Shown here in pieces: positions 13,400 through 60,964 of a stretch of DNA of 64,000 bases (position 1 is the stretch's first letter; every line of letters starts with the position of its first letter). Made by a program: the position numbers and the translations under genes. Below the pieces are notes generated by a model. That model was not told the DNA's origin, did not search any database, and saw only the letters and a program-made list of their open reading frames with translations. This stretch comes from Amoebophrya sp. A120 (taxonomy: Eukaryota > Protista > Dinoflagellata): positions 1,463,809 to 1,527,808 of the forward strand of contig CAJINV010000002.1 of the NCBI GenBank assembly GCA_905178155.1, given 5' to 3'.

Positions 13400-16300
13400 T
13401 TACCTTCCCCCTTTAGCAGAAGAAGTCCCGCCGGCGTTGTTGTTCCGTTGCGCCCCTGCACCACCACGCCAGTTGTTGTTGGAAGTCATGTTTCCACCGC
13501 CGTTCATGTTTCCCGTAGTACTCATCTGTTGGCTCTGATTGTACGCAGAGGCGTGCGTGTTGTTATTCCCATAGACCGCGGTGTTCATCATCATGGACCC
13601 AGCTTGCATCTGGTTCATCCCGTGTTGCTGCCCCCACGAAGCAGACCCGTTCTGGTGATGTTGCGGGCCCCAGTTACAGCCTCCAGTCGCGTAGGAACCA
13701 GGAGCGCCGCCCCAATAATTGGCGCTGTTGTTGTAAGAACCCTGGTGGCCGCTGCAGCCTCCATAGCCGCCGTTCATCATGCTGCCGTTGTACTGGTGCG
13801 CGGCCGGCGCACCGGGATAAGAACCATTACCCTGACTGCAGCTTCCGTTGCCATTCATTTGATTGTACTGCTGGTTGCTGTAGTAAGTGGCATTTCCCTG
13901 CTGCTGCATGTTTCCGTTGTTCCAGTTCGCATTCTTACTGTAATTGTTCATCCCTGCTCCGTTGTTCTGATGCATGTTTCCACCGGTTGTGCCTCTGTTC
14001 TGCTGTTGATTCGCCGTCGTGCCGTTCTTGTTACTATCGCCAGAACCGCTGTTGCTGTTCCCCTGCTGCATGACTCCTTGCTGCTGCTGCCGGTTCATCC
14101 CACCGCTTTGACTACTATTGTTCTGCGCATTATTACCACCACCTCCGTTGCGCTTCTGGTGATGCTGATTGTTAGTTCCGTGGTGATTGTGGCCGTTATT
14201 ACCATGCAGATTCCCGCCGCGGTACAGCGCGTGCCCGACCCGATCGACCACCGCCTTGGCCTCCGCACATTGCGGCCAGCAGGACTTCACAACCTCATTG
14301 TACAGATACTCATCCTGCTTGCACATCCGGAACAAGGTGTCAAACTCCACACCAGGTCCGTCCTTATCAAATGTTAAAATGTCTGGGTCTGGAAGCTTGC
14401 AATTTGTCATGCTGTTTTTGGATTCCAGAAAAAGAATCTGTATTGCATGAGTACCACAAGGAATGTAATTTTTGCTACGCGGAGAGGGCGTTTGTCATGC
14501 GGAATAGGTATCAAGAAGCTCTCAAAAAATCCGTGATGCTAGGGCATGCATCACAGACATCAGGGCTCACGCAAAGCGTGCATGACAAGTGTCAGAATCT
14601 TCCAGACCCAGACATTTTTACAGTTGATAGTCCTGAAACGCTTGTAAGACAACGCTCCGCGCCTTCAAGACCCAGTCGGTATTATTGTTCTGCTGATTGT
14701 TTTGTTCATCCGCGCTCTTATTCATCTGGTTATTTCCACAGTTGTTGTTTGTGCTGGAATTGTTGTTAGTCCCACTTCCTCCGTTCCGCAACAACCCTAA
14801 AGCCAACGTCCCATAGGTTCTCGCATCGGGCGCAACATCAGATTTTTTCATCAATTCCGGAATCTGCAGTGCGTGCTGGAACCATTTGTTATTCAGCAAT
14901 GCGGAGAGCAAGCAGGTGAAGACGTGGTTATTCAGCGAAATGTTGTACAACACCGGCCACTGCTCCACTAATTTCAACGCCTCATCCACTTTCTGCAATC
15001 TCCCGTACATCTTGATCGCAATCGTCAACGTGAAGTGCGACGGGGTGAAACAACAGGTCGGTTTGGAGGTGGTAGTGTTGTTGCCGTTTTTATTCGCGTC
15101 ACCATTTATTTCTTGACCAGCATAATTCTGGTTGTAAATCATCTCATTAAACAACTCCAGCGCCTGCTCGCATTTGTTGTTCTTCACACAACCGTCTAAA
15201 AGCGTGTTGAAGATCACCTCGTTCGGTTTTAACATTCTCGTTTCCTCATTGCAGAAATGCTTGCGGTAAATCTGGATCCCGTGGTCGACTAGGCCATGCA
15301 TCATGTAGCCTTTGATGAGAGTGCCGAAGGTGATGATGTCGAGTTTTAGGTTTTTACTGAGCATTTCCTCGATCAATTCTTCCGCGTTTTGCATCATGTT
15401 CTCCTCTGACCGGCAGCAGGCGTCGATCAAAGTGTTGTACGAAACCTCGTTCATCAGGACCTGATAGAATTTCAATTTCTTTTGGTAGTTTTGCATGGCA
15501 AAAACACAAGCTCATGCGGATTCGCGCATGACAAAAAAAAGTGCGTAAAGTAAAAAAGAAATACGTTGTTCTCCCGCACGAACCCCAGCGCCTCCTTGGC
15601 CCGCCGTTCCAGCGCAAACCCCTTCAGCAACGTCGAGTACATAATCGGGTTGGGTTTCAGGATCGTCTTGTAGCTATTGAACAGCTCCAGTGCGTAGTTC
15701 ACCTGGTTGTTCGACACGCACGCGTCAATCATACACCCAAGAGTGATCTCATCCGGCTGCAAACCACACGTCGTCACCATCTCCGCCCAGAGCTTCTTCA
15801 CGTTCTCCAGGTTTTTCAAAATTCCCCAGCCCTTCAACAAAGATCCATACGTCGGCACGTTCGGGAATTTGATCTCGTTACACTCTAAAATCCGCTTCAA
15901 CCGTTGGTATTCTTTCCCGCGAATGCAGGAATCAATCGCCGTTTTCAATAAAAATTCATCCTGCCCGATCCAGATCTTATCCAACAGTTTAAAAGCCGCT
16001 TTGTTATTCTTCGCGATGTTCACGTTCACGTGGTTCGTCGATTGAACCCGCACCGTTTTCAACATGATCGTCACTGTGTAGTGGTCGATCGGGTACTTGA
16101 TCCCACAAAGGCCCTCGTTGATGATCCGCCAGGCACGTCTCGAGTCGCCCATCGAGACCGCAAGGTTTAAGATGGAGTTGTAGGAGACTCTATCCGGAGT
16201 GAACTGGGATTTCTGCCGTAATTGCTCCAAACAATCAAATGCATCGGGTAAAGTGTGGCAAAACGCCTTCAAATACGTGTTGTAGGAGACAGAATCATAT

Positions 16301-19300: not shown

Positions 19301-22300
19301 TCATTGTAGTCGCAGTTGTACCAGCGCCGGAATTTGTCATGCTAGTCGTAGCACTAGTCCCCATCTGCTGCTGCATCAGCCACATGTTCATCGCGTTCTG
19401 AATGTTCATGTTCATCGCACTCTGCATGTTCATCCCGTTCATCGTCATCGGTGTCGCCCCGTCGTAGGAACTTGTCATGGGCATTTGCATAGAACCAGGC
19501 TGCGTACTCACTCCAGAAGTTCCAAACATATTCATTTGCTGCATGTGCTGCAAAAACGCCATCTGCATAGCGTTGGAAAACTGCATGGGATTGTTGCCGT
19601 TTTGGTTTTGCTGCCCGACAGAATTATTGTTGCCTGTAGTGGCCGCATTGCTCATCAACCAGTCCATGAAACCGCGAGGGTCAGTGGTGCTTCCCCCTTG
19701 TTGCTGTTGCTGCTGCCCGGATCCGTCGTGTGCTGCCGCAGTTGTAGTGCCAGCATTTCCCATCGCAGCCGCGATGTTCACCGGCTGTCCATTGTTCATC
19801 GCTTGCATTTGCGACAACAGCTGTGCCTGCTGAAACACGAGTGCGGGGTCTGCGAAACCAGTAGTGCTTGTTCCCCCAGAAGTTGTTGTTCCATTCCCGT
19901 TGGCATTTCCACCGCCAAACGCCGCGTTGCAGTTACTCTGCATCTGCATGAACATGTTCTGCAAGTTCAAAGCCGCGGCCGCCGCCGCCGCGGCAGCCGT
20001 CTGCGAATTGGCTCCGGCCAACATTCCCGGCATCGGCATCATCGCTCCGTTGATCGACGGAAGCCCAAAACCGCACGCGTTCAACCAGCTTTGTCCGGCC
20101 CAAAACTGATCCGCGGCTAGCGCGTACTCCTGTTCCGCTTGGAGTTTGTCCGGATCGTTTCCAACTAGCTCTTGATGCTGTTGCAACGTTGGATCGGTCG
20201 TGAAACTATCGCCTGGCGAAGAGGTTAACGCGGAGAGATTCAGCATGTGGTTGTCGATTTGGATCTGGTTGTTGCCATTGACGTTACTCGCATTTCCCCC
20301 AGCATCACAAGTTCTAGTTTTGCTGTTGCTGTTTCCGATGCCAGCGTCTTCCTGTCCATCCGCCGGTGGCGGTGGCGGCGGGGGAACGATTTCGTGCTGC
20401 TGCTCTTGCTGCTGCTGTTGTTCCATAGCATGACAAGCTGCTGTTCCCATTTGCGCGGCGGCGGCGGCTCCTGGGGGTGCTGCAGCCACCATGATTTCTC
20501 CACTGACCGGGTTATAGTAGGTCGGAATCCACTGTTCCTGCGCAGGTGGTTGCGCTAACATCGCTGTACCCTGCTGATGGTGACCATACGTCGTATGATC
20601 CATTGCTGCTCCAGCCTGCTGCTGGTGGGCAATGGCAGCACTACCACCCATTTGATGTTGTCCGCCTTGCAAGTTGCCAACCTCCTGTGAATGATGTTCT
20701 TCCTCTCCCAAAACTTCCACCCCGCTGTCACTACATTCCTCACTCTCCTCCGCAGAGCTACTGCTTACCGCACAGGAACTGGAGCTGGTATAGGCTTGTG
20801 TGTCATCTATGCATTGCAAATATGTCTGGGTGCGGAAACTTGTGATGCAAGAAAGGGAAGAGTGAGCACACTGTGATGCGCTGCCCAGCATGACAAGTTT
20901 TTCCGTGGTTCTGCTTCTGAGTTGCGTACTTCGCATGAGAAACTGCGTTTGTGCATGAAAGACGCGAGGAGTTCTTCGCGGCCACGCAATACAAAGTTCA
21001 GAGTCATCGTTATGCCAGACGAGCATGACACATCTCGCAATCTCCCAGTCCCAGACATATTTGAACTGGATATCATCGTCCTTCTGGCAACTCGTCGGGC
21101 AATCTTGGTGCTCGTACGTCGGGTAAACGTTACAGTTCGCCGGGGGGCTGTTGTTCGAAACAGATAACCCTGGTGGACTATTGAAAATCCTCTCCCTTTT
21201 TGTCATGGAGCTGTTGTTGGAAGTTATTTTAGACGAGGATTTCCTATTCCCGTCGTGGTTCTTCTGATCCGGCGTTTTAATATTAACGCTGCTTGCGTTC
21301 GAGCTCGCGTTTGCAGCAAGGTTGCCGCGACTGTTATTCATTCCGTGATTGTAAGATCCCCCGCCGTTGCTGGTACCATGATTTCCACCACTCCCGCTAT
21401 TCGTCTTCGACCGTCGCATCTTTTCACTGTTGCTCATGGTCTGCGAGTGGTTCGAAGCGGAATTGCTGCGTTTATGCGGGGGGGTGCGAACCCCGCACAG
21501 GCCCATCGTGGTACCCTGTTGGTTTTGGCGCTGGATGGAAATGTCGGGGGAATTGGGATTCGAACCCGCGATGGAAGCGGCCTTTTGTTTGTTGTCGTTG
21601 CTGCGCTTGCGAGCCGATAAAGAGTTGTGATTTGCAGTGCCGGTTGAAGGACCATTGCTGTTATTGTTGTTCCACTGGTGTTGGTTGTTATTGTTTGTCA
21701 TCCCGCTCATATTTGCGGCTCCTTTCGACGCACCAGTTCCGCTGTTGCCACTGTAATTCGGGTTACAGTTGTTGCCATAAGTAGACCCACAACCCGACCG
21801 GCCTTTGTGATTCTGGTTTTCATTTCCGTAGTAAGCGTTACTATTGTTCACCCACTGGTGATTGTACTGCATATTATTACCTGTCATCATACCGCCTGGG
21901 ACAGTAGAACCCTTCATATTGCCGTACTGGTTACCACACCCGTTCCAATAACTTGCATTCGGCTGGGCGTAATAGCCTCCAGCACAAGCTCCATTCTGAT
22001 CACCAGTAGCGTTGTTCATACCGTTCTTTTGCAGAACCGTTTTGATGTTGCCACCGGTAGTACCCGCAGAAGATTGTTGCATTTGGCCATTATTTCCACC
22101 ACCACCGGAGCAAGAGTTGATATACGCGATGCCCGCATTCAAATTCGAAGTCGGACCAGAAAAGTCCTGCTGTGAAGACATGTCTACTTCCACTTTGCTC
22201 GTCTTGCGGCGGTTGTTTTGCTGGTGCTGATTCATCTTCCCATTGCCATTGCCATTCGACGAACCGGTGTCGCCGCTCTGCTTGTTTTGCACGTCTGTAG

Positions 22301-23048
22301 AAGTCTCCACAGAACCTTCGCCACTGCCAGGTTTGCTGTTGAAATTTGCGTTGTTGTTCGTTTTACCATGCTTGTTCTCCCCGGGATTCGTCACTGCTGC
22401 AGAAGAAGCTCCTGCACTATCGTTCATCGCCCGTCCGTTGCTGCAATTCGGGTCGATCTGGCAGTTCAAGGGGCTGGTGTTGGAAACCATCAGAGTGTCC
22501 TCGTTGTCGCTATTCCCGCCCTGCTCCGCGATGCAGGAGCGATCAAAGTTGCGCAGACTCGGGGGGACGACAGCGGTTTTGTTTTCTTCTGGCGCAGAAT
22601 CCTTTTCAGGAGACCGATCCTGGGGACTGGTTGTGGGCACGACTGTAGTCGCATCTTGAACTTTCGACGCGTTGCTGGTACCATCCCCTCCGGCACCAGA
22701 AATTTCACCAGCGCACGCAGTTTCCTCCGAAGATGTCTGCGCAGCCAGGACAGCCGCGGGCTCAGGACCATCCTCAGAATTAGTTGCTTTCATCTTTTTG
22801 TTTTTGTTCTTCTTGATTTTCTTTTTCTTATTGCCGGTTGGTCCGGTCGCTCCCATCGACGTCCCGGGCGGATCTTCATCCGGACCCTCGGTCTCTTGCA
22901 GGTCGTCTTTATTCATCTCGGTTTTTGCTGTATTAAAGCACTCCTGCATGAGAAGAACCTCCTCGTCGGGCGGCTGCTCGTTTGATTCCGCGTTATGGTT
23001 CTCCTCGCTGGAGGAGGAGAAGAGCGCGTTTTTGAACGCTTGCAGCAT
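13400..23048 (-). CDS. Pentatricopeptide-repeat (PPR) protein, ~2873 aa after splicing, with long Q/N/G-rich disordered N- and C-termini; 6 exons
   Basis: PPR motifs include PDRVSYNSILN, PNVPTYGSLLKG, PDEITLGCMIDAC, NEVSYNTLIDACC, PNEVIFNTLLDGC and PDARTYGTLALG. Removing 270+126+257+104+270 nt leaves 8622 nt in one frame. Confidence 0.9.
14365..14629. mobile_element. Introner family A (265 bp)
   Basis: Family A TIRs, TSD gtcct/gtcct. Spliced product reads AFQD/GPGVEF. Interior is the reverse complement of the copies at 38061 and 39085. Confidence 0.93.
15461..15564 (-). other. Canonical GT-AG intron (104 nt)
   Basis: AAC|GTATTT...TATCAG|GTC joins RENN/VLMNEVSYNT, completing a PPR motif. Confidence 0.85.
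16298..16549. mobile_element. Introner family A (252 bp)
   Basis: TSD aatca/aatca. Removing 257 nt changes frame and rebuilds the PPR motif CD/SVSYNTYLKAFC. Confidence 0.95.
17528..17653 (-). other. Canonical GT-AG intron (126 nt)
   Basis: CCAG|GTATGG...AAACAG|AG joins two same-frame ORFs across a stop codon (ERHPE/YLPSP). Confidence 0.7.
20808..21072. mobile_element. Introner family A (265 bp), in frame and stop-free
   Basis: TSD tcatc/tcatc. Reads through within the 1807-aa ORF. Spliced product reads QKDDD/TQAY. Confidence 0.92.
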
Positions 23049-34137: not shown

Positions 34138-37100
34138 CTACAAACTCCGATCCTTATTCCGTCTCTTCCTCTGTTTCCGCGCCGTGTCTTCCTCCGGATC
34201 GAATTCCCCCTGAAAGTCAAATTCGTTCGGCTCCGCCAACTGCGGTCGGTTCGACTGTCTGCTAGACCTAGAATGACTCCTAATCGAATTCGACCCCGTG
34301 TTCGGCCGGGACTCCGAAAACTCCCCGGCAAATAACTCGCCCGAGATTTCCCGGCTGTGGTGGGCGGAAGAGAGGTTTTCCCTGTCCCGGTCTCCGCCCC
34401 TGGATTTACTAGACCTGGAGGATTTCCTTTTCTTTCTCGACGATTTCGAGTCCCGCAGAGAATCATTTTCCCCGTAGGAAGAACTATCCGGACGGATCAG
34501 AATGTTCCCAAACGGGTCTGGGGTGGCGAATTCCGTGGCGAAAGTGACCTGTTGGTTCTGGGAGTTGTTGAAATTCGACTGGGAAAGCACTTGCTGAGTG
34601 GAGATCGACGCGGAGGAGGAAGTGCCAGGGCGATGTTGGAACTCTGAGGTTCCCGGCCGGCCGACGCTGTTAGTACTGTTATTCCCCTGTGTAGTCATGC
34701 CGTTATTTGCACCAGCCTGCGTCGCCGTCGCCGGTTCGTCAAATGGGAAGAGGTTATCTGCATTTCCGCTCGACGTTCCTGGCCTTGTCCCCGGCTGATT
34801 TCCTGGCGGGAACATCGATTGCTGGGTCCCCGGCCGAGAAAAACTCACCATCGAGCCCGCGGCGGAGGAATTTGGTCTAGTTGACTGCTGTTCTACGTTA
34901 TCATTCGGTGCGAACATGGAAGCCGCTTGGGGATCGCCCGCCCAGATGGTCGGCATGTTGTTCTCTAAAATGAATTGGTCGTCTTCTTCAAATTCATCAT
35001 CGGAGTAATTTTCCTCTGGCGTGGCGGATTCTCCTTGCTGTGCTGTTGTCGTCGTTATAGGTGCTGCAACCTGCGCTGTACTTGTTGTCTGTTGTGCGCT
35101 TGTTCGCGGCTGTTGTTCCCCTGCTCGCCTCTGCTCTCTCTCCCTCGTCGTGCTTTGACTCGAGGCTGGCGGCGAAGGCTGCTTCGCAGTGGACGACGGC
35201 CTTGTACCCCCGTGCTGCGTATGGATTGCAGAGATGTCTGGGTCTGGAAAAGTGCAAGGTTTGTCATGCTAGGCTAGCAAGACTCTTAAGTCTGTCGTGC
35301 GCGTTACCCAAAGGCGCTATTTTTCTGTGATGCAAAAACGCAGTTTGTCATGCGGAATAGGCAAGGCTCAGAAGCTCAGAAACTTGTCATGCTGAGCCAT
35401 CATGTGTGGCATCCACATTCTAACTCGCTCAGCATTACAAGTTTCCAGACCCAGACATTTTTGCATCTGATACTGCGGCCGTTGCGAAGATTGGGAGGAG
35501 GTTGTCGCCCCCGGGTTCCCTCGGGAAGAGGAAGACGCAGCTGGCGTTTTTCCCCTAGAATTTGCTCCACCACTGCTTCCAGGTACTTTCCTTTCCGAGG
35601 ATGATTTCGTAGACGGCCGGTTCCTCGCCCCGGATGAGGCAGCAGGGGTTGTCATCCGCCCAGCATTTGTCGTGCTGCTTTCCCGACTAGAAGGCACAGC
35701 GCCCCGACTTCTCGGCGGCACGGCCGCTGGCTTCTCCCCCGGCGTCATGTCGTCACTCACACCAAACGGCAGCAATCTTTGTTGCAACTTGTCCTGGTTC
35801 TCTACCAATTCCAACTTCCCGGTTCTCGTGTCCATTCCGACATGATTTTGCACCGCCGCCCCTAAAGGCGATTCCGACCCAAGAACATTGTCCTGCGGGG
35901 AAAAAATCTCATTCTCCGCTACGGTCGGAAACGGGAAGTGCTCCACCTGGTTCTGATTTTCCTTCTGCCCCTCGGAAGAGCCAGCCGTGGAAATGGATAA
36001 ATGGGAAGAAGATGTTCGAGGCGGTTTAGAAGTGCTGCTGCTTTTCTTCTGCCCACCTTGGCTGCTTTTCGACGCCGATGTTCCCGCTTTCATCTTCCCA
36101 GATGATGACACTAATTTCCCTCCGGAACCAATCGCAGTAGATCCGGAACTTGTCACGTTCCTTTCCAGAAATTCCGTTTGCGCGGTGGTTGGTTTGGAAA
36201 AGGTGTGGTCACCCTCGTTGTTCATGTATCAAATGCAAATATGCCTGGGTCTGGACGATTTCACGACTTGTCATGCAGGTGCAACGTGACCCATAAAGTC
36301 TGGAATGCAGGACCTGGCATGACAGATTCTGTGACATGTGTATCATGCCTATTCTGCATGGAAAACTCCCTCCCATCCTGGTCAAAAATGAACAGCTTGT
36401 TTTGATGGTAGCTACGCAACACAAATTTTTGCATGCATGGTCCAGATTTAGCATGACAAGTCTTGCACTCTTCCAGATCCAGACACTTTTGCAATGCATA
36501 TCATGGGTGTTTCCTCAACTTCCTCCTGCTCAAACTCCTCGTTTTGGTACTGTTCATCATCTGACGCAATGGGCTCGTCGAGTGGTTCGGTTTGTTCTGC
36601 CGGTTTTACTTGATTTTGCTCCGTTTCGCTCGTTGTCGCCGGAGCGGTACCAGAACCGGACTCCTCCTCAGTACCGGAGACAACTTTATCGTCAGAACCA
36701 CTTGGCATCGGAAATTCCTCGGAGTCTAGTTTTGAAGTGTCCGTCATTTTCGATTCTTTCGAGGTGGTAGATTGATGCTGTTTCTTCTTCTTCGCTGCCG
36801 GATCGGTTGTTTTCTTTCTCTTCGGAGAAGTTGTAGTTGTTTTCTTTTTCGAATTCACGTCCGACCCGCTGCCTGACAACAGCATCTCCACCTGGTCCCC
36901 CGCGTAGGGGCTCGCCAATGGCTTCGTGGTCGAATGTTCCTTACTGGTGCCCTATCAAATGCAAATATGTCTGGGTCTGGAGCAAGAATGTGAGATCTGT
37001 CATGCAGTTTTTGCCTGACCCTGATCGTCTGGCATGCAAGCTCTAGCATTACAGACTTTGTTGAGCAGGTGCCCCAATGCCTAATCCGCATGACAAATCA

Positions 37101-40100
37101 CCTCTTTCGGTAAGAAGAGCTGGACCCTTTTGCTAGTCATGCATGCCAGATCTTGTCATGATGTAGACTTCGCATCACAAATTCGAACTCTTCCAGGAGA
37201 CCCAGACATTTTTGCAATGCATATGTCCGCAATAGAACCCTGTCCGGAGGATTTTTTCGACTCTTTAGACTGGGTGGAAAAACCGGAAGACTTTGTGTTG
37301 TTCAGACTGTTGTTTTTCGAAGACGGATTTGTATTTCCGCCAGAAGTTGTTCCTCCTGCGGTTTTTTTCCTTTTCTTCTCCCGTTTCTTCTCCTGCATGT
37401 CGTCCAAATTTAACACTTCGATCTGACCGTACGGACTAGCGGCGACAACCGATGGTGGGATAATGCTATCCTTCGTCTTCGGCCTACTCGATGCAGTCAA
37501 CGACCTATCTTCGTCTGTCCCGAGACTACCTGCTGTGTTTTTGCTTTGCTCGTTCAACAATAAATCCTCGTTTTCACTGCTGGTTTTGTAAGTCTGCTCG
37601 GCGGAGGAAACGACATCTGGCAAAGGGTAGTTGTACTGCGGAATATCGAAATCTTCCACCGTGTTCTGCGGCGTTCCCATTTTCACGTTGGTTTCTGCAG
37701 GACCAGGCGCACCACTACCGTCCGCCCCCGGGTTACTTGCGGGCGGCGGAACAGATCGGCTGTCGGATCTCCTCTTCGGCCTGGACTGCTCGAAATCCCC
37801 CCGCACGTCCGCTTCCATCTCGTCCAAGGTCGCCGGAGGTTTTTCAGAAATTTTCGCCAATTTCGTGTTCTGCGTTTCTGCCCGTGGTCGGTGGTGGTAG
37901 AGTTTGTTGCCGGAATTATTACTATTTCCATTATTCTGTGGTTGGTAAAACGGCCCCGTCCCCGCATGGTACGTCTGCGCCATCATTTCCTTCTGCTGTT
38001 GTTGCGATTGCGTGGACGTGTTGTTCCCACCCAACTGCTGTTGCTGCGCCAACGCCGTTTTATGAAATGCAAAAATGTCTGGGTCTGGAAGAGTGCAGGA
38101 GTTTGTCATGCAGATTTTACATGACCCATGAGGTCTGGGATGCATGCCCTAGCATCAGAGACTTTGCGAGGGCTTTCTGATGCTAATACCGCATGAGAAA
38201 CGCTCTCTCCGCGTAGCACAAATTACACCTCTTTTGCTCTTCATGCAATACAGATTTTATCTAGATTCCAAAAGTAGCATCACAAGTTGTATCCTTCCAG
38301 ACCCAGACATTTTTGCAATCCATACGTTTGCGACATGAACAAAACTTGCTGCTCCCGGGCTTCCGCGATATGGAAGTGTCAGAATTCAAATCGACAAAGT
38401 TGAAGTAATTTCTCATGCATAAAATTGCAAGGCATGAAGTGACTCTCTTGCAGGGGTGGCAAGTGAGGCCGACTGTCAGCCTGCTTGGGATCTGCGAAAG
38501 AGCTACTAAAGTAGTATGACAAAAGACGGCTTCTGTCCCTAAACAGCATGACAAACTGGCTCTAGACGGTGCCAAAATTTGTCATGCACCGCTTGGAAGT
38601 TGGGCTTCCAACTGGTATCGATTTTATGCATTACAAGTTGTTTAAACTTTGTCGATTTCAATCCTGACACCCCCATACGCGATGTCATCGTAGTAACTCG
38701 CCACCGCGTTGAACTCGCTGGCCATGTTGCCGGAACGGAGGAATTCGGGATTCACGCCGTAGATGTCGATAGACCTTCTTGTGTTCTTCCACGTATCCGA
38801 CTCCCGGAATTCCTGTATCCAAGAAAAAAACTGTGTTAGCGTAAGTCTGTTTGGCTGACAGCATCACAAATTTGCTCTACATGAAAGAGAAAACCTGTCG
38901 TGCATGGATTGCAAGTGAAAACACACATGAAAACAGGACTTCGTGGTTGTCTGGCATGACAAGCGTGACTCTGTTGCAGGTTCTGCATTACAGAGTTACA
39001 CTTACGCGGTTTTTTTCTTGCATATCCTGCCCGTCCTGCGCGGTGGTCGCCGCGGAACTCGCCATGTAGTACCCCGCAGTGGTGTATCAAATGCAAATAT
39101 GTCTGGGTCTGGAAAAGTGCCAGGTTTGTCATGCATATTTTCCATGACCCATGATGTCTGTGATGCATGCCCTAGCATCACAGATTCTGCGAGGGCTTTC
39201 TGATGCTCGTACCGCATGAGAACGTCTCTCTCCGCGTAGCAAAAAGTGGACCTTTTGCTGTTCATGCAATACAGATTTTATGTAGAGTGCAAAGATAGCA
39301 TCACAAGTTGTGTTGACCTTCCAGACCCAGACGTATTTGCAATGAATATGGTGGTCTGCGCGGCGGTGGTGACACCGGACGCGGTCGTGGATGATGGGCC
39401 GGAATGGTTGGTTTGCTTTCTGGTTTTGTTCTTGTTGGACGATTTTTGGTTGTTGTTCGGCTCCGGAAGCGTGTCCATCTGGAGAAATGGGGAGCCGTAC
39501 TTGTTGGTCAGATTGTCGTTTTTCCCGGGGAATAAGCCCGGAACGGCACCGCCGGAAGTCCTGTTTCATTTTCAAGAATTTGGTGATATTTCAAGAACTT
39601 TGTCATACATGCACAAACAACAGCCGAAAACAAGCGCTTTGTCATGCATCAAAAACCACGACGAAAAACAAACCTATACTCCATCACTTTCTCGATCACC
39701 ACCCGTTCATACACCGCCGGCAAATACTTCCGGCTCACAAACATCTGCGCGTCGCGGATCTTCTCTCGGTTTTTGATCGTTTCGGAGTGTTTTTCCGCGA
39801 CTTTTTCCTGTTCCGACGCCAGTGTCTATGAGAGTGCACAACCCCCCTCCCCCTCATTTGTATCGCATGAACAGCAATGCAAACACCACCACACGTGGAG
39901 CTCGTGCATGACAAATTTGTGTGCCTGGTGTAGTACTGTTTGGGCCGCCGGAATTTGTCATGCAAACAGTGCGACAAGGAAGCGACTCGATTTAGGGTTT
40001 TGCATGACAAATGAGGGGGAGGGGGAGTTGTGCACTCTCATAGTGTCGACGGATGGTGGATGGAGATGATTTTCCCCGTTTTGTCACTTATGCCCTTCTC

Positions 40101-43100
40101 CTTATTCTTGTAATTATCCTGTGCAAAAGTATCGCACTCGTAGTAATTGCAGTTATGCATGACAAATCTCTTTCTCAAAGTAAATTAGCATTACAAGTTG
40201 AATTTGTAATGCTGGGCTAATTTGTAATGCAATTTATACTAGTACGATGCTTTTGCATTGCATAGTAATCTTGGGTAAGCAATTTTTTCGCGTTCTCCCG
40301 CTTCATCAGTTTCTGCTTCTGGATAAACACCTCCATGTTTTTATGGTACTCCTCCCCGAGCGCACCCAGATCGTAGCCCAGTTTCACGTGCGTTTTTACC
40401 TTCACTTTCTGCTGTAGGTAGAAGGACGCGATAGAGGAAGAGAGTTGGGTGGAGGAGGAGGTCACGGTTGGGCCATGGGAACTCGTCGAGGGCTGATAAT
40501 TATTTGATAAGGAAATTGTAATTGAATCCTTCGTAAACGCAGTTTTTGCATCACAAAACCATAACCATTGCCATTCTCACATAAAGGAATCGCGCAAGAC
40601 GAACTGAATCTCTGCAAGAAAAAACTGACAATCTACCTCTTTCAACAGCTCGAGCGAAATTTGTTTTTTCCCGATGTCAAATGCTTCCTGCACCCGCATG
40701 GCTTCCGGCACCTCCAGCGGGTCTCCGATCACTTCCAACATTAGTTTCGCGACTTCTGGGTGCATGGACAAACCCTCCGCGGCGCACCGTTTTCTTTCCG
40801 ATTCAATCAACGCAATTATAACCTGCTCAGGTGTTACAATCTCAAACGTTACAATAGAGTCTGGAATTTGTGTTGCAAGAAGTGCATTATCTAGCTTACT
40901 CCCATAGGATTGCGCATGACAAGTTCTGGAGTCCCAATCCGCACAGCAATCTGGCGAAATTTGTATTGCAGAAAGTGGAACGCTGTCCGAGTCTGTCATG
41001 CTCATCATGCAATACAAAACCCAGATTCTATTGTAACGTTTGAGATTGTAACGTTTGAGCGGGTCATAGCAATCACTTCCGTTTTTTTCGTGTCATCCTT
41101 CATCTGCTGGAACTTTTCCTCCTTACTCATCTTCTTTTTCCTCTTGTTGATAATCACCTTCGGCTCCGGAGGCGCGTCTGCTGCGGGTTGTGCCGCTTCC
41201 GGCTCAGGGGACGTGTTCGCACTTGGGTTCGCCCCCGCTTCCTCGGAATTCTCCCGTGGTGGTGGTATTGAAAGAAAAAAGTTCGTCACAGTCACTAATT
41301 TTCATTTTTTGAAAAAAAATCAGGGCAAATTGAAAATTTGACTTGATGGCCGAAAAAGCAACCAGCTTAAAAACTTCAGGCCTCGCGCGGCATGCTGAAG
41401 CCACGGCCTGGCTGCGTTTTGCGTGCCCGGGTTGTCTTAGCTCACTGAAGCTTACCCACTGCGCGGCCCCACAGCCTTTGACAGGGAAGGACACCTACCA
41501 GGAAAGGGGGCAGAGCGCGTGTCTTCGATTACACGGACCTAGCGCGCAAGTGGTCGCGCAGCGCCTCCATGGCCTTCCACTTCTCCCTTGATAAAGCAGG
41601 CCGCCTTCGTTCCGTTGAACATCTAAAAGGCCGCCACAAGGCCGGCCTGCAAAAGTGATTGGGCCTGGTTACATCTGTCCAGACCTCTTTTGGCATTGGG
41701 CAGACCGCCCAAAATTTCAAAAAAGCGGCGACAGCTTTTTTTTTTCAAAAGTTGCCTTTTGAACATTCGTTCGCGCAGTCACTCGGCCTAGTTTTTTTCG
41801 GTCGCTCGAGTTTTTTTTCGACCCCCGCCGAAACGAAAAATTGGCCGAGTGACGAACTTTTTTGGCGAATATGATTTCGCTTTCCCGCACCTAAAATGCC
41901 GCTTTTTGGAAATTGAAGCGCTTCGTCACTCGGAGCTTTTTTCACAAAAAAAGGCTCCGCTTTTTTGTCGTTTTTGTTCTGTTTCAAAACAATTTTTTGA
42001 CCTGTTTTTCTCCGAGTGACTATGGCGCGCAAGAATCAAAATTCCAATTTTCGGCTTCATGCAGTCGGAAAGATTTGCGGTTTTTGCGCATTTGCGTAAG
42101 TTGCTTCTGCCTTTAGGCAAGGTAGTCGACTGCCCTAGTCCGCCCAGTGACATGTGCCGCACTCAGCCCCGTGTTTTGGGTATTTCGTTAGAGGGGCGCG
42201 CGTAAATGCGTTGCCGCTCATCGCTGGCACATATTTTGCAAAAGTTCTTGGCGCAGTAGCTGCGCTAAGAATTTTTTGCGTAGCCAGGAAGGCGTAGGAG
42301 CTCTTGCGGAGGCATGTGTGCTTCAGCGCGTCTGCCCCGGAAATGGCTAGAATTTAGCTCCGTCAAGCCGTCGAGACCACTAGTTCTGCAAAATACAAGG
42401 CCCTTGCAGTCGAAGGGGAAAAGGTCGCGCGTTTCCTCCACATCAGAAGATTTCTTCTTTTTCACCTTTCAATTTTTCGAAAAATGAAAAATTGTGACTG
42501 TGACGAACTTTTTTCTTTCGATAGGTGGGAACGCGGAGGCAATTGGGTTCGCCGCTTCCTCGGAATTCTCCCGTGCTGGTGGGAATATGGAGTGACAAAA
42601 CGCAAAACAGGCCTATTGGAAAGTGGCGAAAAAATTTAATTTTCTTCAATGTGGATTGAGGAAAATTAAATTTTTCGAAATGCGCCACGGGCGTTTGTTG
42701 CATTCTTGGCGCCAAATTGGGAGAGGAAATGGAGCAGAGCGGGGAAGCAAATTAGCACGACGAGTAGACGCCATATGCTTTGCGAACCCGTCCGATTGGG
42801 TGAAAAGTGGCACGAGTGAGGACTTATTTTTTCGCACCCCACCCCGACCGAGCGTGACAATGGCGAATCCACCCCACTGCCCAATCACCCGGCCGGGCGG
42901 CGGTGGATGAGCGATAGGCATTAGTTTGGGACGTCAATAGCTCCAAATCCTTCGCATTAATGCACACGGGGCAAGGCGCGTTGTTTTGCCGCTGTGCTGT
43001 CGCGATGGAATGGGCAGCGGCTCCTTCCGTGACTTTGCTTGGCCAACAAACCGCTTTGGAGGTTCAGCAAACATCAAAGGGAAGTAAGAAAGAACAAGCA

Positions 43101-46100
43101 CCCCAAGCCGAGCGCGTGCGCTTTTCTTCGCCGAGTTACACTGCGAAAAGCCACTCGGACAAGCCACGCAGATGCATTCCGGGCCTCGGAAGGGGCATCC
43201 GAAGAGGCTGGATGGCCACACAGGCGCTCCGAAGTGTCCACAGTGGAGTCCTTTTCAGATCAAAAAACGCGCCATTTTTGAACTTCATAAATGTTCAAAA
43301 AAAGCGCCACTTTTGAATTCAATTGCGCGGGTTGGGTGTTTTCGGCGCGGGTAGGGTGTTTTGGGCCAACCCGCGCCGCGGGTTGGCTGTTTTGGGCCAA
43401 CCCGCGCAATTGAATTCAAAAAAGCCAACTTTTGGGCCTTTTTGAGGAGCAACTTTTTGGGCATTTTTGACGAGAAAAAAAGCCAATTTTTGGGCCGCTT
43501 TGCCGACCATCCAGACACTTTTCGGGGGCAAAACGTGGGCGCAAGGACGCCCTCCACTGCCTTGTCGGAGACCACACACGCCACACCTGCCCCTTCGGGA
43601 AGCCATCGCGAACACTGCAAACGCAACGGCACAACCGAGTGGCGTCCCCGAATACCGCGTCGCTCGGTGGCGAAGTGCCTTCTAGTGTGCCCCTCCCATG
43701 CGGAAGGTTGGCGAGATTGCCTCGCGTGGCCAGTCCGGCGCTCACGACGTCTCACGGGGCGCCAACCTACAAGAGACCCGACGCGACGGCCAAGTCAAAA
43801 GTGAGCGAAAACCGATTGCGCTCGAAAGCAATTCAAGAATCCCCGCGCGCAGCAGTTGCTTGAGTGTAGTTCTTTGCATCGCATAGACAGCCGAAACACG
43901 CGGAAAAGGTTGCCGCTTTTTGCGCGCATTGCGTCCTTTCATTTGAATCGCTGCCCCCATTTATTGGCTGGCAATCCTGCTGACTCTTCAACTACAGACA
44001 CACGTTTTTAGGTGCGCCGTTACTCAAAATTGGGAGGCCGATTTTCAGAAATTTTAAAAAAATCAATCGGCATTGAGAAAATATCAATTTTAGGGTTCGC
44101 CGCTTCGTCGGAATTCTCCCGTGCTGGTGGGAACGCGGAGGCAATAGGGATTGGCGGAACGGTCGGTGCACCAGATTCGGGTGCTGTAGCCGGGGCGGGG
44201 GGTTCTGTATTGAAATTTAAAGGCTAAGCTCAATGAAAAGTTGCGATTTGATGCCATGCAGGTGATCCAAGAAAATCTCATTTTGTCAAATGCGCAAATT
44301 CCTATCTATCATCTTACCTGCTGCCTCCACTGGTTCATCTTCCGGTGGTGCCAACAAAGCCGCTTCCTCCACAATCGCATTTTCTGTCGCTTTATCGACC
44401 ACCTCCTCCGCCACCTCCGCACTTAAATCCGGCTTAAAATTTTCATCCCCCTCTACTTCCTCTTCAACTACCTCCTCCTCCTCTTCAATCACCCCGCCAA
44501 TCCGCGCTTTTTTCGGTTTAGTCAATTCCTTTTCCGTGTCGGTTGGTTTTGTCCTCTCCACTGATAACCCGAAAACTTCTTCAGCCGAGTCCCGGATCAC
44601 GTCCTTCACAATCAGCTCCGACTGCATCTGTTCCGTCCAAGATTCCTCCGCGGAAGACGCTGCGGAGCTGGAAATCGCACCGGCCGGCTCTTCAACCTCT
44701 TCTGCGGGAAGATGATCTTCGTTGCTGGTAGAAAGAGAAAAAAGAAAAAAGAAAAAAAAAAAAGAAAAAAAAAAACAAACAGATAAAAAAACAGCAAAAA
44801 AAAAAAACTATAACAAAAAAAAAAAACTTAAAAAAATAATAAAGTGAAAAAAAAAACATGAAAAATAAAAAAAACAACATATAAATGACAAAAAAAAAAA
44901 CTAAGAAAAGATAAAAATAAAACAAAAATATAAATATAAAAAAATTTTCCAAAAAAAAAGAACAAAAAAAACATAAAAAAAAACCGCATATGAAAAAAAA
45001 TATTAAAAAAAAAAGAAAAAAAAAAATTTAGCAAAATTAAACAAAAAAATACATATTAAAAAAAAAAAAAAAAATCAAAAAAAAAAAAGACAAAAACTAA
45101 AAAAAAAAAAATAAAACAAAATTATAAAAAATAAATCAAAAATATAAAAAAAAAAAAAAAAAAAAAGACATCAAAACAGAAAAAAAAAAAAAAAATAAAA
45201 CAAAAAAAAAAAGAAAGAAAAGAAAAAAAAAAAAAATATCATAAAAAGATAAAAAATGAAAAAAAACACAAAAAAAATATTAAAAAAAAAAAAAAACAAA
45301 AAAAAAAAAATTTAAAAAAAATATTTACACTACAAAAAAAAAAAAAAAATAGACCGCATTTTAAACAAACAACAACTAAAATTCAGACAAATTCACTAAA
45401 AAACACAAAAAAAAGCAGAAAAAAAAAAAAATAAAAGAAAAAAAAAAAAAGTAAAAAAAAAAATAAATAAAAAAAAAAGAAAGAAAAAAAAGAACACGCA
45501 ACAAAAAAATAGAAAAGCAAACACAATGCAAAAACAAAAAAAAAAAAAAAAAAAATAAAAAAAAAAAAAAATAAATAAAAAAAAAGAAAAAAAAAAAAAG
45601 AAATAAAAGAAAAAAAAATATCAAATACAAAAAAAGAACAAAAAAAACCAAAAAAAGACAAAAATGCAAAAAAAAAAAAATAAATAAAAAATAAAGAAAA
45701 AAAAAAAAAAAAGAAATAAAAAAAAAAAAAAATAAAAAAATCAAGAACAAGAAAAATAAAAATAAATAAAAAAAATCAAGAAAAAAAAATAAAAATGAAA
45801 AAAACAAAAACCAAGAACAAAAATAAAAAAACAAAAAAAAAAGAAGAAAATAAAAAAAAAAAGAAAAAACATAAAAAAAAAAAAAAAAAACATGCAAAAA
45901 CAAAAATTGTAGAAAAAAAATAAAAAAAAAAACAAAAACAAAAAAAAAAAAAAAAAAAAAAAATAAAAAAAAATAAAAAAAAAGCAAAAAAAAAATAAAA
46001 AAAGATAAATAAAAAAAAGAAAATAAGATAAAAAAAAAAGAAAAAAAAAAAAATAAAAATATATAAAAAAATTAATATGTAAAAAAAAAAAAAAAAAAAA

Positions 46101-46764
46101 AGAAAAATAAAAAACAAAAATTAAAATAAATCAAAAAAAAATATAAACAACAAACAAAAAACAATAAAAATAATACAAATAAAAAAACTCAAAAAAAAAA
46201 AAAAAGAAAAAAACAAAAGAAAAAAGAACAAAAAAGAAAAACAAAGAAAAAACTAGAGAAATAAACCAAAACAAAAAAAAATAGGAATTAAAAGAAAAAA
46301 AAACGAAAAAGGAAAAAGAAAAAAAAATAATAAAGATAACGAAAAGGAAAAAGAAAAAAAAAATAAAAAAATAAAACAAGAAAAAATAAAAATGAAAAAG
46401 CGAAAAATAAAAGAAAAAAAAAAAAACTAACACAAAAAATAAAGTAGAAAAAGCAGCTATTAAAGCCAGATCATAAAAGAAAAAAAATGCAGCACAAAAA
46501 AAATAAAACAAAAAAGGACTTAAAAAAAAAACAAAAAAAAAAAAAAAAAAGAAAAACAAAAAAATAAAAAATAAAAAAAAGAAAAAAATAAAAAAATACT
46601 AAACAAAAAAAGACATATGCACCAAAAAAAAAAAAAAATAAACAAAATAAAAAAAAAAGAGAAGGTAAATATTAAAAAAAGCAAGAAAAAAGAAAAAACA
46701 AAAAGCAAAAAAAAAAAAAAAAAAAAACAAACAAGCAAAAAAAAAAAAAGAAAAAAAAAAAAAA

Positions 46765-46806
<42 letters not shown>

Positions 46807-47610
46807 GAAATAAAAAAAAAAACAGAAAAAAAAATCAAAAAAGAAAAAAAAAGTATAAAAATAGAAAATGACGAAAAAAAAGAAAAAAAAAAGAAAAAAA
46901 TAAAGAACAATCAACATAACAAATTAAAAAAAAAAAAATTAATATAAAAAAAAAAGATTAAAAAAAAATAAACAAAAAAAAAACTAGAAAAAAAGATAAA
47001 AACAATAAAAAAAAATAAACAGAAACAAAAAAAAGAAGATAAAAAAAAAAAGAATTAAATCAGAAAAACAAAAAAAAAAAAAATAAAAACAAGAAAAAAA
47101 AAAAAAAAAAAAAAAAAAACCAATATAAAAACAACAAATAATAAAACAACACAAAAAAAAAAAATAAAAAAAAATAAGAAAGAAAAAAAAAATAAAAAGA
47201 AAAAAGAAAAATAAAAAAAAGGAAAAATAAATATAAATATTAAAAAAATAATAATAAAAAAAAAAAAAAAACAAAGTAGCATAAGATATAAAAAAAAAAA
47301 TTAACAAATAAAAAAAAAAAAAAAGAAAAAAATAAAAAAATAAAAAAAAGAAGTAAAACAAAACTAAAAAAGAATATAATAAATATAAAAAAGAAAAAAA
47401 TAATAGAAAAAAAAAAAAAAAAACAAAAAAAAAAGAAAAACAAAGAAAACCAAAAAAAAAAACAGAATGAAAAAAAAACGAAAACAAAAAAAAAAAAAAA
47501 AAAAAAAAAAGAAATAAAAAAATAATAAAAGTAAAAGTTAAAAAATAAAAAAAAAAAAAAAACAAACACAAAACAAACAAAAAAAAAAAACAAAATATAA
47601 AAAAAACAAG

Positions 47611-47643
<33 letters not shown>

Positions 47644-50215
47644 AAATAATAAGAAACAAAAAAAAAAAAATAGAATAAAACAAAAAAAAAAAAAAAAAGC
47701 TAATAAAAAAACAAAACGAAAAAAAAGAAACAAAACAAAAAAAAAAATAAAAAAAATACAAACAAAAAAAAAAAACAATAAAAATATTATTAAAAAAAAA
47801 AAAGAATAAAAAGTAAAAAAAAAAAGAAACAAAATCAACAATAAGAAAAAAAAAAAAGAAATAAAAGAGAAAAAATAAAAAAAAAAACAAAAAAAAAAAA
47901 TAAACAAAAAAAAAAAAAAAATATAGAAATTAAAAAAAAAAAATAAAAAAAAAAAAAAAACTAAAAAAAATAAACAAAAAAGAAAAAACAAAAAAAAAAA
48001 AACAAAGAAAAAAAAATAAAAAGAAAAAAGAATAAAAAAGACAAAAAAAAAAATATAAAACAAGAGAATAAAACAAAAACAAAAAGAATAAAGAAAAAAA
48101 AAAAAAAAAAAAATAAAAAAAAAAAAGAACAAAAATAAATTTAAAAATAAAATAAAAATTAAAAAAAAAAAACAAAAAAAAAAAAAAAATATTAAAATAC
48201 AGAAACAAAAAAAACAAAAAAAAGAAAAAAAAAAAATAACGAAAAAAACAAAATAAAGAAAAAAGAAAAGAAATAAACAAAAAAAATAACAAAAAAAACA
48301 AAGACAAAAAAAAAAAAAAAACAAAAAAAACAAAAAAATTAAAAAAAAGAAATAAAGAAAAAAAAGAAAAAAAAAATAAAAAAAGAATAAAAAAAAACAA
48401 TATAAAAAAATTAATCAAAAAAAAAGCAAAGCAAAGAAAATAGATAATAAACAAAAAAAAAAATATTTTCAACAAATAATATACAGAACCTAAAAACAAA
48501 AAAAAAAAAATGAACAAAAAAAAAAACATCGACAAAAAAAAAAGAAAAAGAAAAATCTTCAAAAAAAACAAAAAAAAAGAAATAAAAGAAAAAAAACAAA
48601 AAAGAAAAAAATAAAAAAAAAATAAAAAAAAAAAGAAATAAATACAAAAAAAGAACAAAACAAAAAAAACAAAAGATAAAAAAAACGAAAAATAAAAAAA
48701 AAAAGAATCAAAAAACAACAAAGAAAAAAAATAAAAAAAAAAAAAATAGTATAGAATAAAAGATAAAAAAAAAAAAAAAAAAAAAGAAAAACAAGCTAAT
48801 AAAAAAAAATGTACCACAAATAGATAATAATCAAAAAAAAAAAAAAATAAAACCTCAAAAAAAACAAAATAAAAATATAAAAAAAAAAAAATAAAACAAA
48901 AAAAATCAACACAAACATAAACAACAGAAAACAAAAAAAATTATATAAAATAATGATCAAAAACAAAAATCAAAACTAAAAAAAATAAAAAATCAAAAAA
49001 AAGGACAACAAAAAACTAAACAAATTCCACAAATAAAAAAAAAAAAAAAAAAATAAAAAAACACGAATCACCAAATAAAATACAAAAAAAACCAACAAAA
49101 ACACGGACCGAAAACAAAAAAAATTATGGAAGCGTCAGGTTTGAAATCGTCAAAGTTGAAAAATTTGTGATGCATAAAATCGATACCAATTGGAAGCCCA
49201 ATTTCGAAGCGGCGCATGACAAATTTCGGCACCGTCAAAATCCAGTTTGTCATGCTGTTTAGCGAAAGAAGGCATCCTTTGTCATGCCACTTTAGCAGCT
49301 CCATCCCAAACCCGAAACAGGCTCACAATCGGCCTCACTTGCAATCCCTGCAAGACAGTCTTTTCGTGCCTTGCATTTTGTGCATCACAGATTATTTCAA
49401 CTTTGTTGATTTCAATCCTGACACTTCCATATGTTTCTATCGGAGTCTAGCGTACTCGGTGGACAGATGAACGCGGAAACTGATCCGGTGTGGTCGGTCA
49501 CTTCCTGCGACCCGTGGTCGGTAATGGTAAAATCCGTGTGTTGTAAGTGGAGCAAGGAGTTCGACTGTAGTTCCCCGCTGTTGTAGGTGTTCTGCTGATT
49601 GTTGTTCTCGTACTGCTCGTTCATCAGCTCTAGAGATTGTTCATCCCCGGGCAGTTCTAGTGACATATGCGAGTGCACAACTCCCTCTTGCACTCATTTG
49701 TAATGCAAAATACCGAGTCCACCTCTTTCCTTTAAGCATTTTGCGCATGACAGGTCTTGGACCCCGCTCAAACATGACTACAATCCATATCCGGATTTGT
49801 CATGCGGAAGCCACATAACTGCTGTTGCCTGTGTTGCTGTTCTTCCCATACAAATGTAGTGGAGGGGGGGTTATGCACTGCCATATGACATCAACACCTG
49901 CGACTGCTCATCCGCAATACGGTCCTTCTGTTCCTGCTCGGTGATGTCCTGGACGGTTTCTGGATTGTCCAAACCGGATTGAGAAAAAGATTTGTCTCCT
50001 TGCGCATTAGCTGCATCTTCACCAGGAAACTCCGTCCCGTCTAGGTTATATTTCGGCTCGTCCATCGGGGTGGTGACGGCAATCTCCTGGATCGTCGATT
50101 CGGACTGGAAGGAAGGCTTCCTGGAGAGTAGTTCCCGAGACAAGCCGTCCGCGAGCTGGTCTCGGACCTCCGCCTCCGTCCCCGGGGTAGGGGGCTTTTC
50201 TTGTTCTTCCGACAT
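34138..50215 (-). CDS. Giant low-complexity hypothetical protein with many RP[GS]T/RPSS motifs, interrupted by 14 introners, 3 GT-AG introns and an A-rich tract
   Basis: Exons can be walked in frame from MSEEQEK (50215) to 49432 and from ~44730 to the stop at 34138. GT-AG introns lie at 44205-44317, 40493-40636 and 39561-39673. Continuity across 44730-49124 is inferred. Confidence 0.75.
35220..35472. mobile_element. Introner family A (253 bp)
   Basis: TSD ctgcg/ctgcg. Spliced product reads QRPQ/HGGTRP. Confidence 0.93.
36227..36500. mobile_element. Introner family A (274 bp)
   Basis: TSD tcatg/tcatg. Spliced product reads ETPM/NNEG. Confidence 0.93.
36953..37223. mobile_element. Introner family A (271 bp)
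   Basis: Imperfect TSD tgccc/tgtcc. Spliced product reads IA[D/G]/TSKEH. Confidence 0.9.
38061..38324. mobile_element. Introner family A (264 bp)
   Basis: TSD cgttt/cgttt. Spliced product reads FMSQT/ALAQQ. Confidence 0.93.
38369..38677. mobile_element. Introner family B (309 bp)
   Basis: TIR tatggaagtgtcagaattcaaatcgacaaagtt / aactttgtcgatttcaatcctgacacccccata. TSD cgcga. Spliced product reads YDDIA/EAREQ. Confidence 0.92.
38816..39024. mobile_element. Introner family I (209 bp) that also contains an in-frame GT-AG intron (38813-39005)
   Basis: TIR tatccaagaaaaaaactgtgttagcgtaagtctgt versus rc tatgcaagaaaaaaaccgcgtaagtgtaactctgt. TSD tcctg/tcctg. Confidence 0.88.
39085..39348. mobile_element. 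Introner family A (264 bp), close relative of the 38061 copy
   Basis: TSD tggtg/tggtg. Spliced product reads AQTT/TAGYY. Confidence 0.93.
39827..40042. mobile_element. Introner family F (216 bp)
   Basis: Near-perfect ~35-bp TIR tatgagagtgcacaacccccctccccctcatttgt. TSD gtgtc. Spliced product reads HPST/LASEQ. Confidence 0.92.
40115..40264. mobile_element. Introner family G (150 bp)
   Basis: TIR tatcctgtgcaaaagtatcgcactcgta versus rc tatgcaatgcaaaagcatcgtactagta. TSD gtaat. Spliced product reads TQDY/KNKE. Confidence 0.88.
40817..41068. mobile_element. Introner family C (252 bp)
   Basis: TIR tataacctgctcaggtgttacaatctcaaacgttacaataga, with internal gttacaat repeats. TSD gcaat. Spliced product reads EVIA/LIESE. 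Confidence 0.92.
41266..42523. mobile_element. Large non-coding introner D (1258 bp)
   Basis: TIR tattgaaagaaaaaagttcgtcacagtcac / gtgactgtgacgaacttttttctttcgata. TSD ggtgg. Spliced product reads AFPP/PRENS. Confidence 0.9.
42586..44092. mobile_element. Large non-coding introner H (~1507 bp), right TIR truncated
   Basis: Starts tatggagtgac after gggaa. 42630-42685 is a degenerate inverted match to 44035-44092. Right flank is gggtt. Removal gives EAANP/PARENS in frame. Confidence 0.65.
44730..49120. repeat. ~4.4-kb aperiodic A-rich low-complexity tract (probable base-calling or assembly artefact)
   Basis: Mostly A with irregular single-base interruptions and no repeat unit. Begins abruptly mid-exon and replaces the expected TSD of the adjacent introner. 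Confidence 0.8.
49125..49431. mobile_element. Introner family B (307 bp), opposite orientation to the 38369 copy
   Basis: Family B TIRs, with an interior that is the reverse complement of 38369-38677. Right flank is tgttt and the left flank is lost in the A-tract. Confidence 0.9.
49666..49885. mobile_element. Introner family F (220 bp)
   Basis: TIR tatgcgagtgcacaactccc / ggggggttatgcactgccata. TSD tgaca. Spliced product reads QVLMS/LELPG. Confidence 0.88.
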
Positions 50216-60900: not shown

Positions 60901-60964
60901 TATCAAATGTAAAAATGTCTGGGTCTGGAAGAATGCAAGTTTGTCATGCTTGTCTGGCATGACT
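60901..60964. mobile_element. Left end of a family A introner, interrupted by a nested element; right TIR not in window
   Basis: tatcaaatgtaaaaatgtctgggtctggaag directly abuts the PIG-S exon. tgtcatgca-rich introner-like sequence resumes at ~63070-63120. Confidence 0.85.

Follow-up and report, generated by a model that had tools for sequence, protein, structure and literature searches.

Inverted-end introners lie in either orientation within intact host frames of Amoebophrya sp. A120 and probably leave RNA by a polar cut

The window analysed here is the full stretch of 64,000 nt, with coordinates counted from its first letter. It holds protein-coding genes, among them a gene for a PPR protein with alveolate-like homologs, which are interrupted by repeated elements with TAT…ATA ends (Table 1). 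A scan for such ends with at least 17 complementary letters out of 25 returned 26 pairs, as compared to 0-2 in each of five shuffles, and 18 distinct elements were left once cross-pairs and one likely chance pair (4064-4255, which has no duplication) had been dropped. A 5-nt target duplication accompanies 17 of the 18 (15 perfect and two with one mismatch), no fit is obtained with 4 or 6 nt, and the duplicated letters have an ordinary coding composition on the sense strand; for the remaining element, the family B copy at 49125, no duplication is seen in the window sequence, its left flank entering an A-rich stretch. Judged by their sequence, the elements look like miniature inverted-repeat transposons, and family A is represented in the window by ten whole copies. 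The long element at 41266-42523, without a long minus-strand frame and with 12-14 stops per frame, is a long non-autonomous member, a transposase having been looked for within the window only.

Table 1. Elements, introns and host features of the window, with positions counted from its first letter
Feature	Positions	Strand	Remarks
Family A, reversed	14365..14629	+	duplication 14360-14364 and 14630-14634; inside the minus-strand PPR gene
Family A, reversed, second copy	35220..35472	+	not named in the first-pass annotation; interior alignment, duplication
Family A, common orientation	10976..11227	-	duplication with one mismatch; 257 nt skipped exactly in an RNA-like contig
Family A, common orientation	16298..16549	-	shares the PPR gene with 14365
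Family A, common orientation	20808..21072	-	interior alignment, duplication
Family A, common orientation	36227..36500	-	interior alignment, duplication
Family A, common orientation	36953..37223	-	duplication with one mismatch
Family A, common orientation	38061..38324	-	interior alignment, duplication
Family A, common orientation	39085..39348	-	interior alignment, duplication
Family A, common orientation	53171..53427	-	interior alignment, duplication
Family B	38369..38677	.	inverted relative to 49125
Family B	49125..49431	.	no left flank or duplication, owing to the A-rich stretch
Family F	39827..40042	.	inverted relative to 49666
Family F	49666..49885	.	removal with one duplication joins open frames of 357 and 336 nt
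Family C, TAT…ATA introner	38816..39024	.	5-nt duplication
Family D, TAT…ATA introner	40115..40264	.	5-nt duplication
Family E, TAT…ATA introner	40817..41068	.	5-nt duplication
Long element G41266, 1258 nt	41266..42523	.	51-nt inverted ends, 5-nt duplication
Diverged TAT…ATA element	10245..10646	.	2 of 5 duplication letters match; 407 nt skipped in an RNA-like contig
Canonical GT-AG intron	15461..15564	-	starts GTAT; skipped in an RNA-like contig
Host PPR gene	13403..23117	-	2897 codons after removal of three A copies and two GT-AG introns
Host gene segment	34141..39565	-	1182 open codons after removal of seven introners, one a reversed A copy
A-rich low-complexity stretch	44738..49101	.	likely assembly fault

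The A-rich stretch extends over 4.4 kb, is about 80% A and starts abruptly inside coding sequence; probably it is not real DNA but low-quality long-read sequence put into a gap. It lies between the two family B copies and breaks the link between them, which the first-pass annotation had placed in what appeared to be one gene. Further structures were seen nearby and towards the end of the window. At 42587-44092 an insertion of about 1.5 kb separates short coding repeats; only one of its sides has a TAT end, and palindromes occur within it at 42630-42675 and 43311-43421. One additional family A copy is apparently split (60901-60967 and 63069-63120) by about 2.1 kb of repeated sequence and adjoins an open reading frame with a PIG-S match; the far end of this split copy was not found in the window.

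A wider count was obtained from 169 loci of one other assembly, which were found through the exact family A end motif, a motif that favours young copies, in 11 of the 64 parts of the collection. These loci contain 266 distinct elements, 160 belonging to family A and the others to at least 10 further families, with the duplication perfect in 208 of the 266 and at least four of its five letters matching in 242. In the non-A families the element search required the TAT and left free the A run about 7 nt later, and 78-92% of the letters at about +11 to +14 are A (178 ends). These ends, TAT followed by As at +11 to +14, match those that PMC7789003 gives, in its text and supplement, for the introners of Amoebophrya sp. 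A120. According to that account, the A120 introners share with the present elements the inverted TAT ends with an A run, direct repeats at the borders, a length of about 150-310 nt, non-canonical borders and co-oriented genes, and both sets form families repeated across the genome and are removed from RNA (here two elements, in the RNA-like run X1). In the same account the repeats are of 3-5 nt, their positions vary and so do the splice sites, whereas the repeats found here are of 5 nt and the cut is polar.

A short motif, GCAT[GC]ACA, read in both directions, is present in 151 of 153 family A copies and, among the other elements, in 69 of 89, at a density of 8-12 per kb; window examples stand at 15526, 17599, 39647 and 53625. 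Predicted coding sequence has 0.13 per kb, and 18.8 kb of intergenic DNA of the window has none. This may be a transposase or intron-marking site. As a mark of all introns it gave mixed results, being found in seven of nine window GT-AG introns picked by eye and in one of 31 filtered GT-AG introns of the loci.

Orientation was scored on the interiors of the elements only, with 55 nt trimmed from each end in family A and 45 nt in families B and F, so that the inverted ends cannot drive the call. The family A copy at 14365 had been described as the reverse complement of those at 38061 and 39085, and this was borne out: on the same strand it scored 25 against the former and 29 against the latter, on the opposite strand 176 and 158, and no more than 26 was reached in 200 shuffles. 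The inversion claimed for the two family B copies was likewise recovered (32 on the same strand and 299 on the opposite one, with 84% identity as reverse complement), as was that of the family F pair (25 and 53, with a maximum of 31 in 1000 shuffles). Of the ten family A copies, eight have the common orientation and two, at 14365 and 35220, are reversed. The first-pass annotation further placed all host genes on the minus strand, which agrees with 15 of the 18 junctions, where this strand has the longer two-sided open frame (one of them marginal), but not with the junctions at F39827, G41266 and A53171, of which F39827 and A53171 adjoin minus-strand GT-AG introns picked by eye.

In the 169 loci, 41 family A copies have the common orientation relative to their host genes and 26 the reversed one (p 0.086), while other cuts of this count give 68:52 (p 0.17) and 41:24 (p 0.046); a mild orientation bias in family A is thus possible. 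A strand could be called for 94 of 230 elements, including 67 of 149 in family A, after rows without a call, with short flanks or with fewer than four of five matching duplication letters had been dropped. Family D is divided 5:4, and conservation of the ends and of the duplication is equal in common and reversed family A copies (p 0.89 and 0.95). No statement on the orientation of Amoebophrya introners was found in the literature searches or in the searched text and supplement of PMC7789003; in that text the word "orientation" is used of genes only and "strand" is absent. The elements, and introners inserted either way in other organisms, are already published, and the present addition is the two-way count together with the polar position of the cut.

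Both orientations interrupt host frames that are otherwise intact. When each element is removed together with 5 nt, an open frame of 3546 nt results over seven elements, the reversed copy at 35220 among them along with four family A copies of common orientation, and this frame fails to open when the element is removed with 0, 3, 4 or 6 nt. Once its three family A copies, two of them common and the third reversed, are taken out, the restored PPR gene has a single stop, at its end; its model also omits two GT-AG introns, one shown in RNA and the other (17528-17653) chosen by eye. Through this second intron, two apparent open reading frames at 13403-23117 become a single PPR gene some 2900 codons long. 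When the reversed copy at 14365 is retained in the gene, a stop is met three codons in. A homolog (P0002) is collinear across the junction at 14365, if weakly (score 46, as compared to a shuffle maximum of 45), through residues directly following its last aligned PPR block. The first protein search covered 481-2000 residues, a range below the about 2900 of the restored window gene. Of 120 HSPs, 86 span the junction at 14365, a count that was set aside since PPR repeats align out of register.

In the loci, coding strand was assigned with a codon model trained on window exons, which called the strand correctly in 119 of 121 left-out pieces. Among 161 elements with flanks of 150 nt, both flanks were coding in 62 and on the same strand in 52, and the frame was continuous across the element in all 52 (chance would be one in three for each), with 21 common and 13 reversed family A copies having such a continuous frame. 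A domain test, applied to the 13 reversed locus copies with both exons long enough, gave a two-sided match to one domain for one of the 13. In locus L051 a KIN17 domain is divided, between its profile positions 26 and 29, by a reversed family A copy, in L119 another lies inside an RRM, and in L162 one lies at the end of an ABC-transporter match. The protein interrupted in L119 (50-732) gives an RRM_1 match and presumably resembles the splicing factor RBM42. If retained, 16 of the 26 reversed strand-called copies of family A would shift the frame. As any insertion with a duplication keeps the frame, such continuity indicates an intact host frame and not splicing; judging by these intact frames, it is likely that reversed copies are spliced as well.

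Direct evidence for removal comes from assembled sequencing runs, the kind of each of which (RNA-like for X1 and X4, likely DNA for X5) is a guess made by the tool; the RNA-like joints were read from contig pieces, and the RNA evidence concerns elements outside 24.7-44.7 kb and outside the region of the reversed copy at 35220 and of the B and F copies. An X1 contig skips both the family A copy at 10976 and the older element at 10245 with no extra letters, and an X4 contig skips the GT-AG intron at 15461-15564, while X5 contigs run from unique flanks into elements and straight through 10240-10646. In X1 coverage is about 120x over one gene and nil over the genes beside it. No listed RNA contig bridges the reversed copy at 14365, where X4 contigs end at 14355 and begin again at 14677, and the common copies at 16298 and 20808 are likewise unbridged by listed RNA contigs, so that the elements bridged are the common-orientation copy at 10976 and the unrelated element at 10245. 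Seven raw RNA reads of the run X7 contain a family A end (16298-16329) that continues into flanks from outside the stretch, so another family A copy is present there, either unspliced or as DNA.

At both X1 junctions the upstream duplication is kept, at least in its first 4 nt, the downstream copy is lost with the element, and no residue of the inverted repeat remains. The duplications of the two bridged elements are mismatched, which fixes the position of the cut as polar: the allowed 5′ cuts are at -1, 0 or +1 from TAT at 10976 and at -1 or 0 at 10245, so that both junctions together place the 5′ cut at TAT or 1 nt before it and the 3′ cut, correspondingly, 5 or 4 nt past ATA. At 10245 exactly 5 extra nt are removed despite the decayed duplication, albeit in one case. 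No allowed register at either junction reads GT-AG, and in the strand-called elements generally 86 of 94 have no exact-excision register reading GT-AG or GC-AG, the other eight having one. The proposal of the first-pass annotation that the stem and symmetric ends, and not linear signals, define the excised unit is not supported, given this polarity.

Registers -1 and 0 both fit the two X1 junctions. We favour a 5′ cut 1 nt before TAT, which would make the intron begin N-U-A-U, and regard this as likely. In Table S4 of PMC7789003, T occupies +2 in all nine predominant non-canonical boundary types of A120 and the acceptor varies; these boundaries may reflect aligner preference inside the duplications. 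GTAT is the commonest start of predicted GT-AG introns (21 of 93 in a noisy set, 6 of 31 after filtering); it begins the canonical intron shown in RNA at 15461-15564, and nine of 12 GT-AG donors in the window, a set picked by eye and biased, start with it. The protein snRNP27 was not detected in A120 according to Table S6 of PMC7789003, and in yeasts its loss is described as accompanying a preference for U at donor position +4 (PMC10581693). In two of the loci (L016 and L017) a reading as GTAT…AG introns whose 3′ end has decayed is open to some elements, possibly marking a route from introner to canonical intron.

The two ends of the transcribed element have decayed somewhat unequally. In 205 elements the outer two letters are altered at the transcript 5′ end in 2 and at the 3′ end in 12 (p 0.013), the restriction to two letters being a post hoc choice; with all three letters the changes number 7 and 14 (p 0.19), in the 114 junction-called elements outer-letter changes number 0 and 5 (p 0.06), and in the 121 elements of family A alone 1 and 3. 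Decay at inner end positions is even (39 as compared to 41), which argues against a strand bias in mutation. On the acceptor side, AG stands at the register 4 nt past ATA in only seven of 74 family A copies, where no dinucleotide is preferred, and when logos were inspected by eye, no branch-like motif close to the 3′ end stayed constant between copies or between families. The alternative that each orientation carries its own conventional signals likely applies to the donor, as TAT is present at either end, but not to the acceptor.

Pairing of the two ends is predicted for each of the 74 family A copies, with means of 0.93 in common and 0.94 in reversed ones. The earlier claim of orientation independence is upheld to this extent, that both orientations sit in intact frames and that their ends are predicted to pair equally well. 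In the stem, sense-strand G·U pairs do not exceed A·C (46 as compared to 58), so that selection on the stem at the RNA level is unsupported. Given an acceptor without a sequence rule and a 5-nt offset that is kept even at a decayed duplication, it is most natural to suppose that the 3′ cut is measured from the stem.

The reading we favour, at somewhat better than even confidence, is that a modified major spliceosome reads the first TAT as donor while the stem places the acceptor, in both orientations. A relaxed U2 spliceosome would thus remove from RNA miniature transposons that had inserted either way. The first TAT to be transcribed would occupy donor positions +2 to +4, resembling the genome's own GUAU donors with the G relaxed, the 5′ cut would fall 1 nt before it so that the intron reads N-U-A-U, and the 3′ cut would fall 4 nt past ATA at a position set by distance from the end-to-end stem. 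Since inverted ends present TAT first whichever way the element lies, orientation independence would be a by-product of the ends and not a sign of non-polar splicing.

It is also conceivable, if rather unlikely, that a separate, non-spliceosomal machine akin to that of euglenids recognises the stem with its closing TAT/ATA and cuts asymmetrically, TAT then being kept for the transposase and the stem and not as a donor. The lack of a canonical register in 86 of 94 elements, the stem predicted in every one of the 74 family A copies, a 3′ cut that is sequence-free and at a fixed distance even at the decayed duplication of 10245, and the report in section 10 of PMC7789003 that U1 snRNA was not found in A120 would all suit such a machine, as would the stem and longer 3′ overhang described for Euglena introns in PMC12501133. 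However, the Euglena signature is found in none of the 94 elements, T stands at +2 in each of the nine leading boundary types of Table S4 in PMC7789003, N-TAT resembles the genome's GTAT donors, the outer letters are weakly better conserved at the 5′ than at the 3′ end, the stem has no excess of G·U, and 83 of 89 spliceosomal proteins along with U2, U4, U5 and U6 are reported present in A120 (PMC7789003). The spliceosomal reading could further be questioned for reversed copies alone, these being poorly spliced and merely tolerated while only the common orientation is spliced well. We consider this improbable: no listed RNA contig bridges a reversed copy and the common orientation makes up 57-63%, but 26 of 67 family A copies are reversed with ends and duplications as well conserved as in the others, most of these (16 of 26) would shift the frame if retained, reversed copies interrupt conserved domains, and the two ends are identical in both orientations.

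Internal eliminated sequences of ciliates are excised from DNA, and removal of that kind would be orientation-blind. DNA-level removal would accord with direct repeats of which one copy is retained and with an alveolate host, yet it appears highly improbable here, as the likely-DNA run X5 passes unbroken through 10240-10646, the same stretch that is skipped in the RNA-like run X1. Scarcely credible, finally, is the notion that conventional dinucleotides inside the family A ends (GT at +16/+22 and AG at -24/-18) are the real splice sites. Such sites do exist in both orientations, and some frame-keeping pair can be chosen in 74 of 74 copies, but the RNA-like contig at 10976 joins the flanks without residue and other families have no such sites at the same offsets.

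Comparison with other systems sets the modified-spliceosome reading in context. Transposon-derived introners in either orientation, with some bias, are described for Polarella glacialis and Aureococcus in the available text of bioRxiv 10.1101/2020.10.14.339549; as here, copies of either orientation lie in coding frames and one copy of the duplication is removed, but there GT, GC or GA with AG sites are supplied by the element or the duplication, whereas only eight of 94 of the present elements could read GT-AG or GC-AG. The non-conventional introns of euglenids share an end-to-end stem, direct repeats and a proposed origin from miniature inverted-repeat transposons in the accounts consulted (PMC6221363, PMC12501133, PMC11282704), and a circular excision product is reported for those of Euglena. 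The euglenid likeness suggested by the first-pass annotation extends to geometry, that is the stem and the longer 3′ overhang, and not to the sequence code: the Euglena code given in PMC12501133 is 5′-N3CDG…CH'G N5-6|R, the CDG/CH'G signature was found in none of the 94 elements in any exact register, and the offsets are about 1 and 4 nt here as compared to 3 and 5-6 in Euglena. In Fritillaria borealis, elements with inverted ends and duplications and a changed U2 spliceosome are likewise reported (PMC11282704, 10.1101/2025.08.15.670264), with preferred borders of AG-AC and AG-AT according to the parts of these sources consulted, whereas the acceptor here has no preferred dinucleotide. Among transposons covered in the consulted part of PMC10045372, IS3EU/GingerRoot have the same TA..TA termini with duplications usually of 6 bp, as against 5 nt here, and Ginger2 shares duplications of 4-5 bp.

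Section 16 of PMC7789003 raises as an open question by what means Amoebophrya, in which no U1 was detected, removes introns other than GT-AG in their tens of thousands. In place of "variable splice sites" the present analysis offers one rule: a duplication of 5 nt, a polar cut, an N-U-A-U donor and a sequence-free acceptor. In a bolder form, which we put forward tentatively and hold to be somewhat doubtful, this would be a spliceosome without any acceptor sequence, needing only an N-U-A-U donor and a 3′ cut four nt from the hairpin base. If that were true, any element with such inverted ends would be a perfect intron in either direction and at any target site, and many unrelated transposon families could colonise coding sequence cost-free. 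Should the rule hold, it would show how far the major spliceosome can be relaxed and why transposons with inverted ends make cost-free introns.
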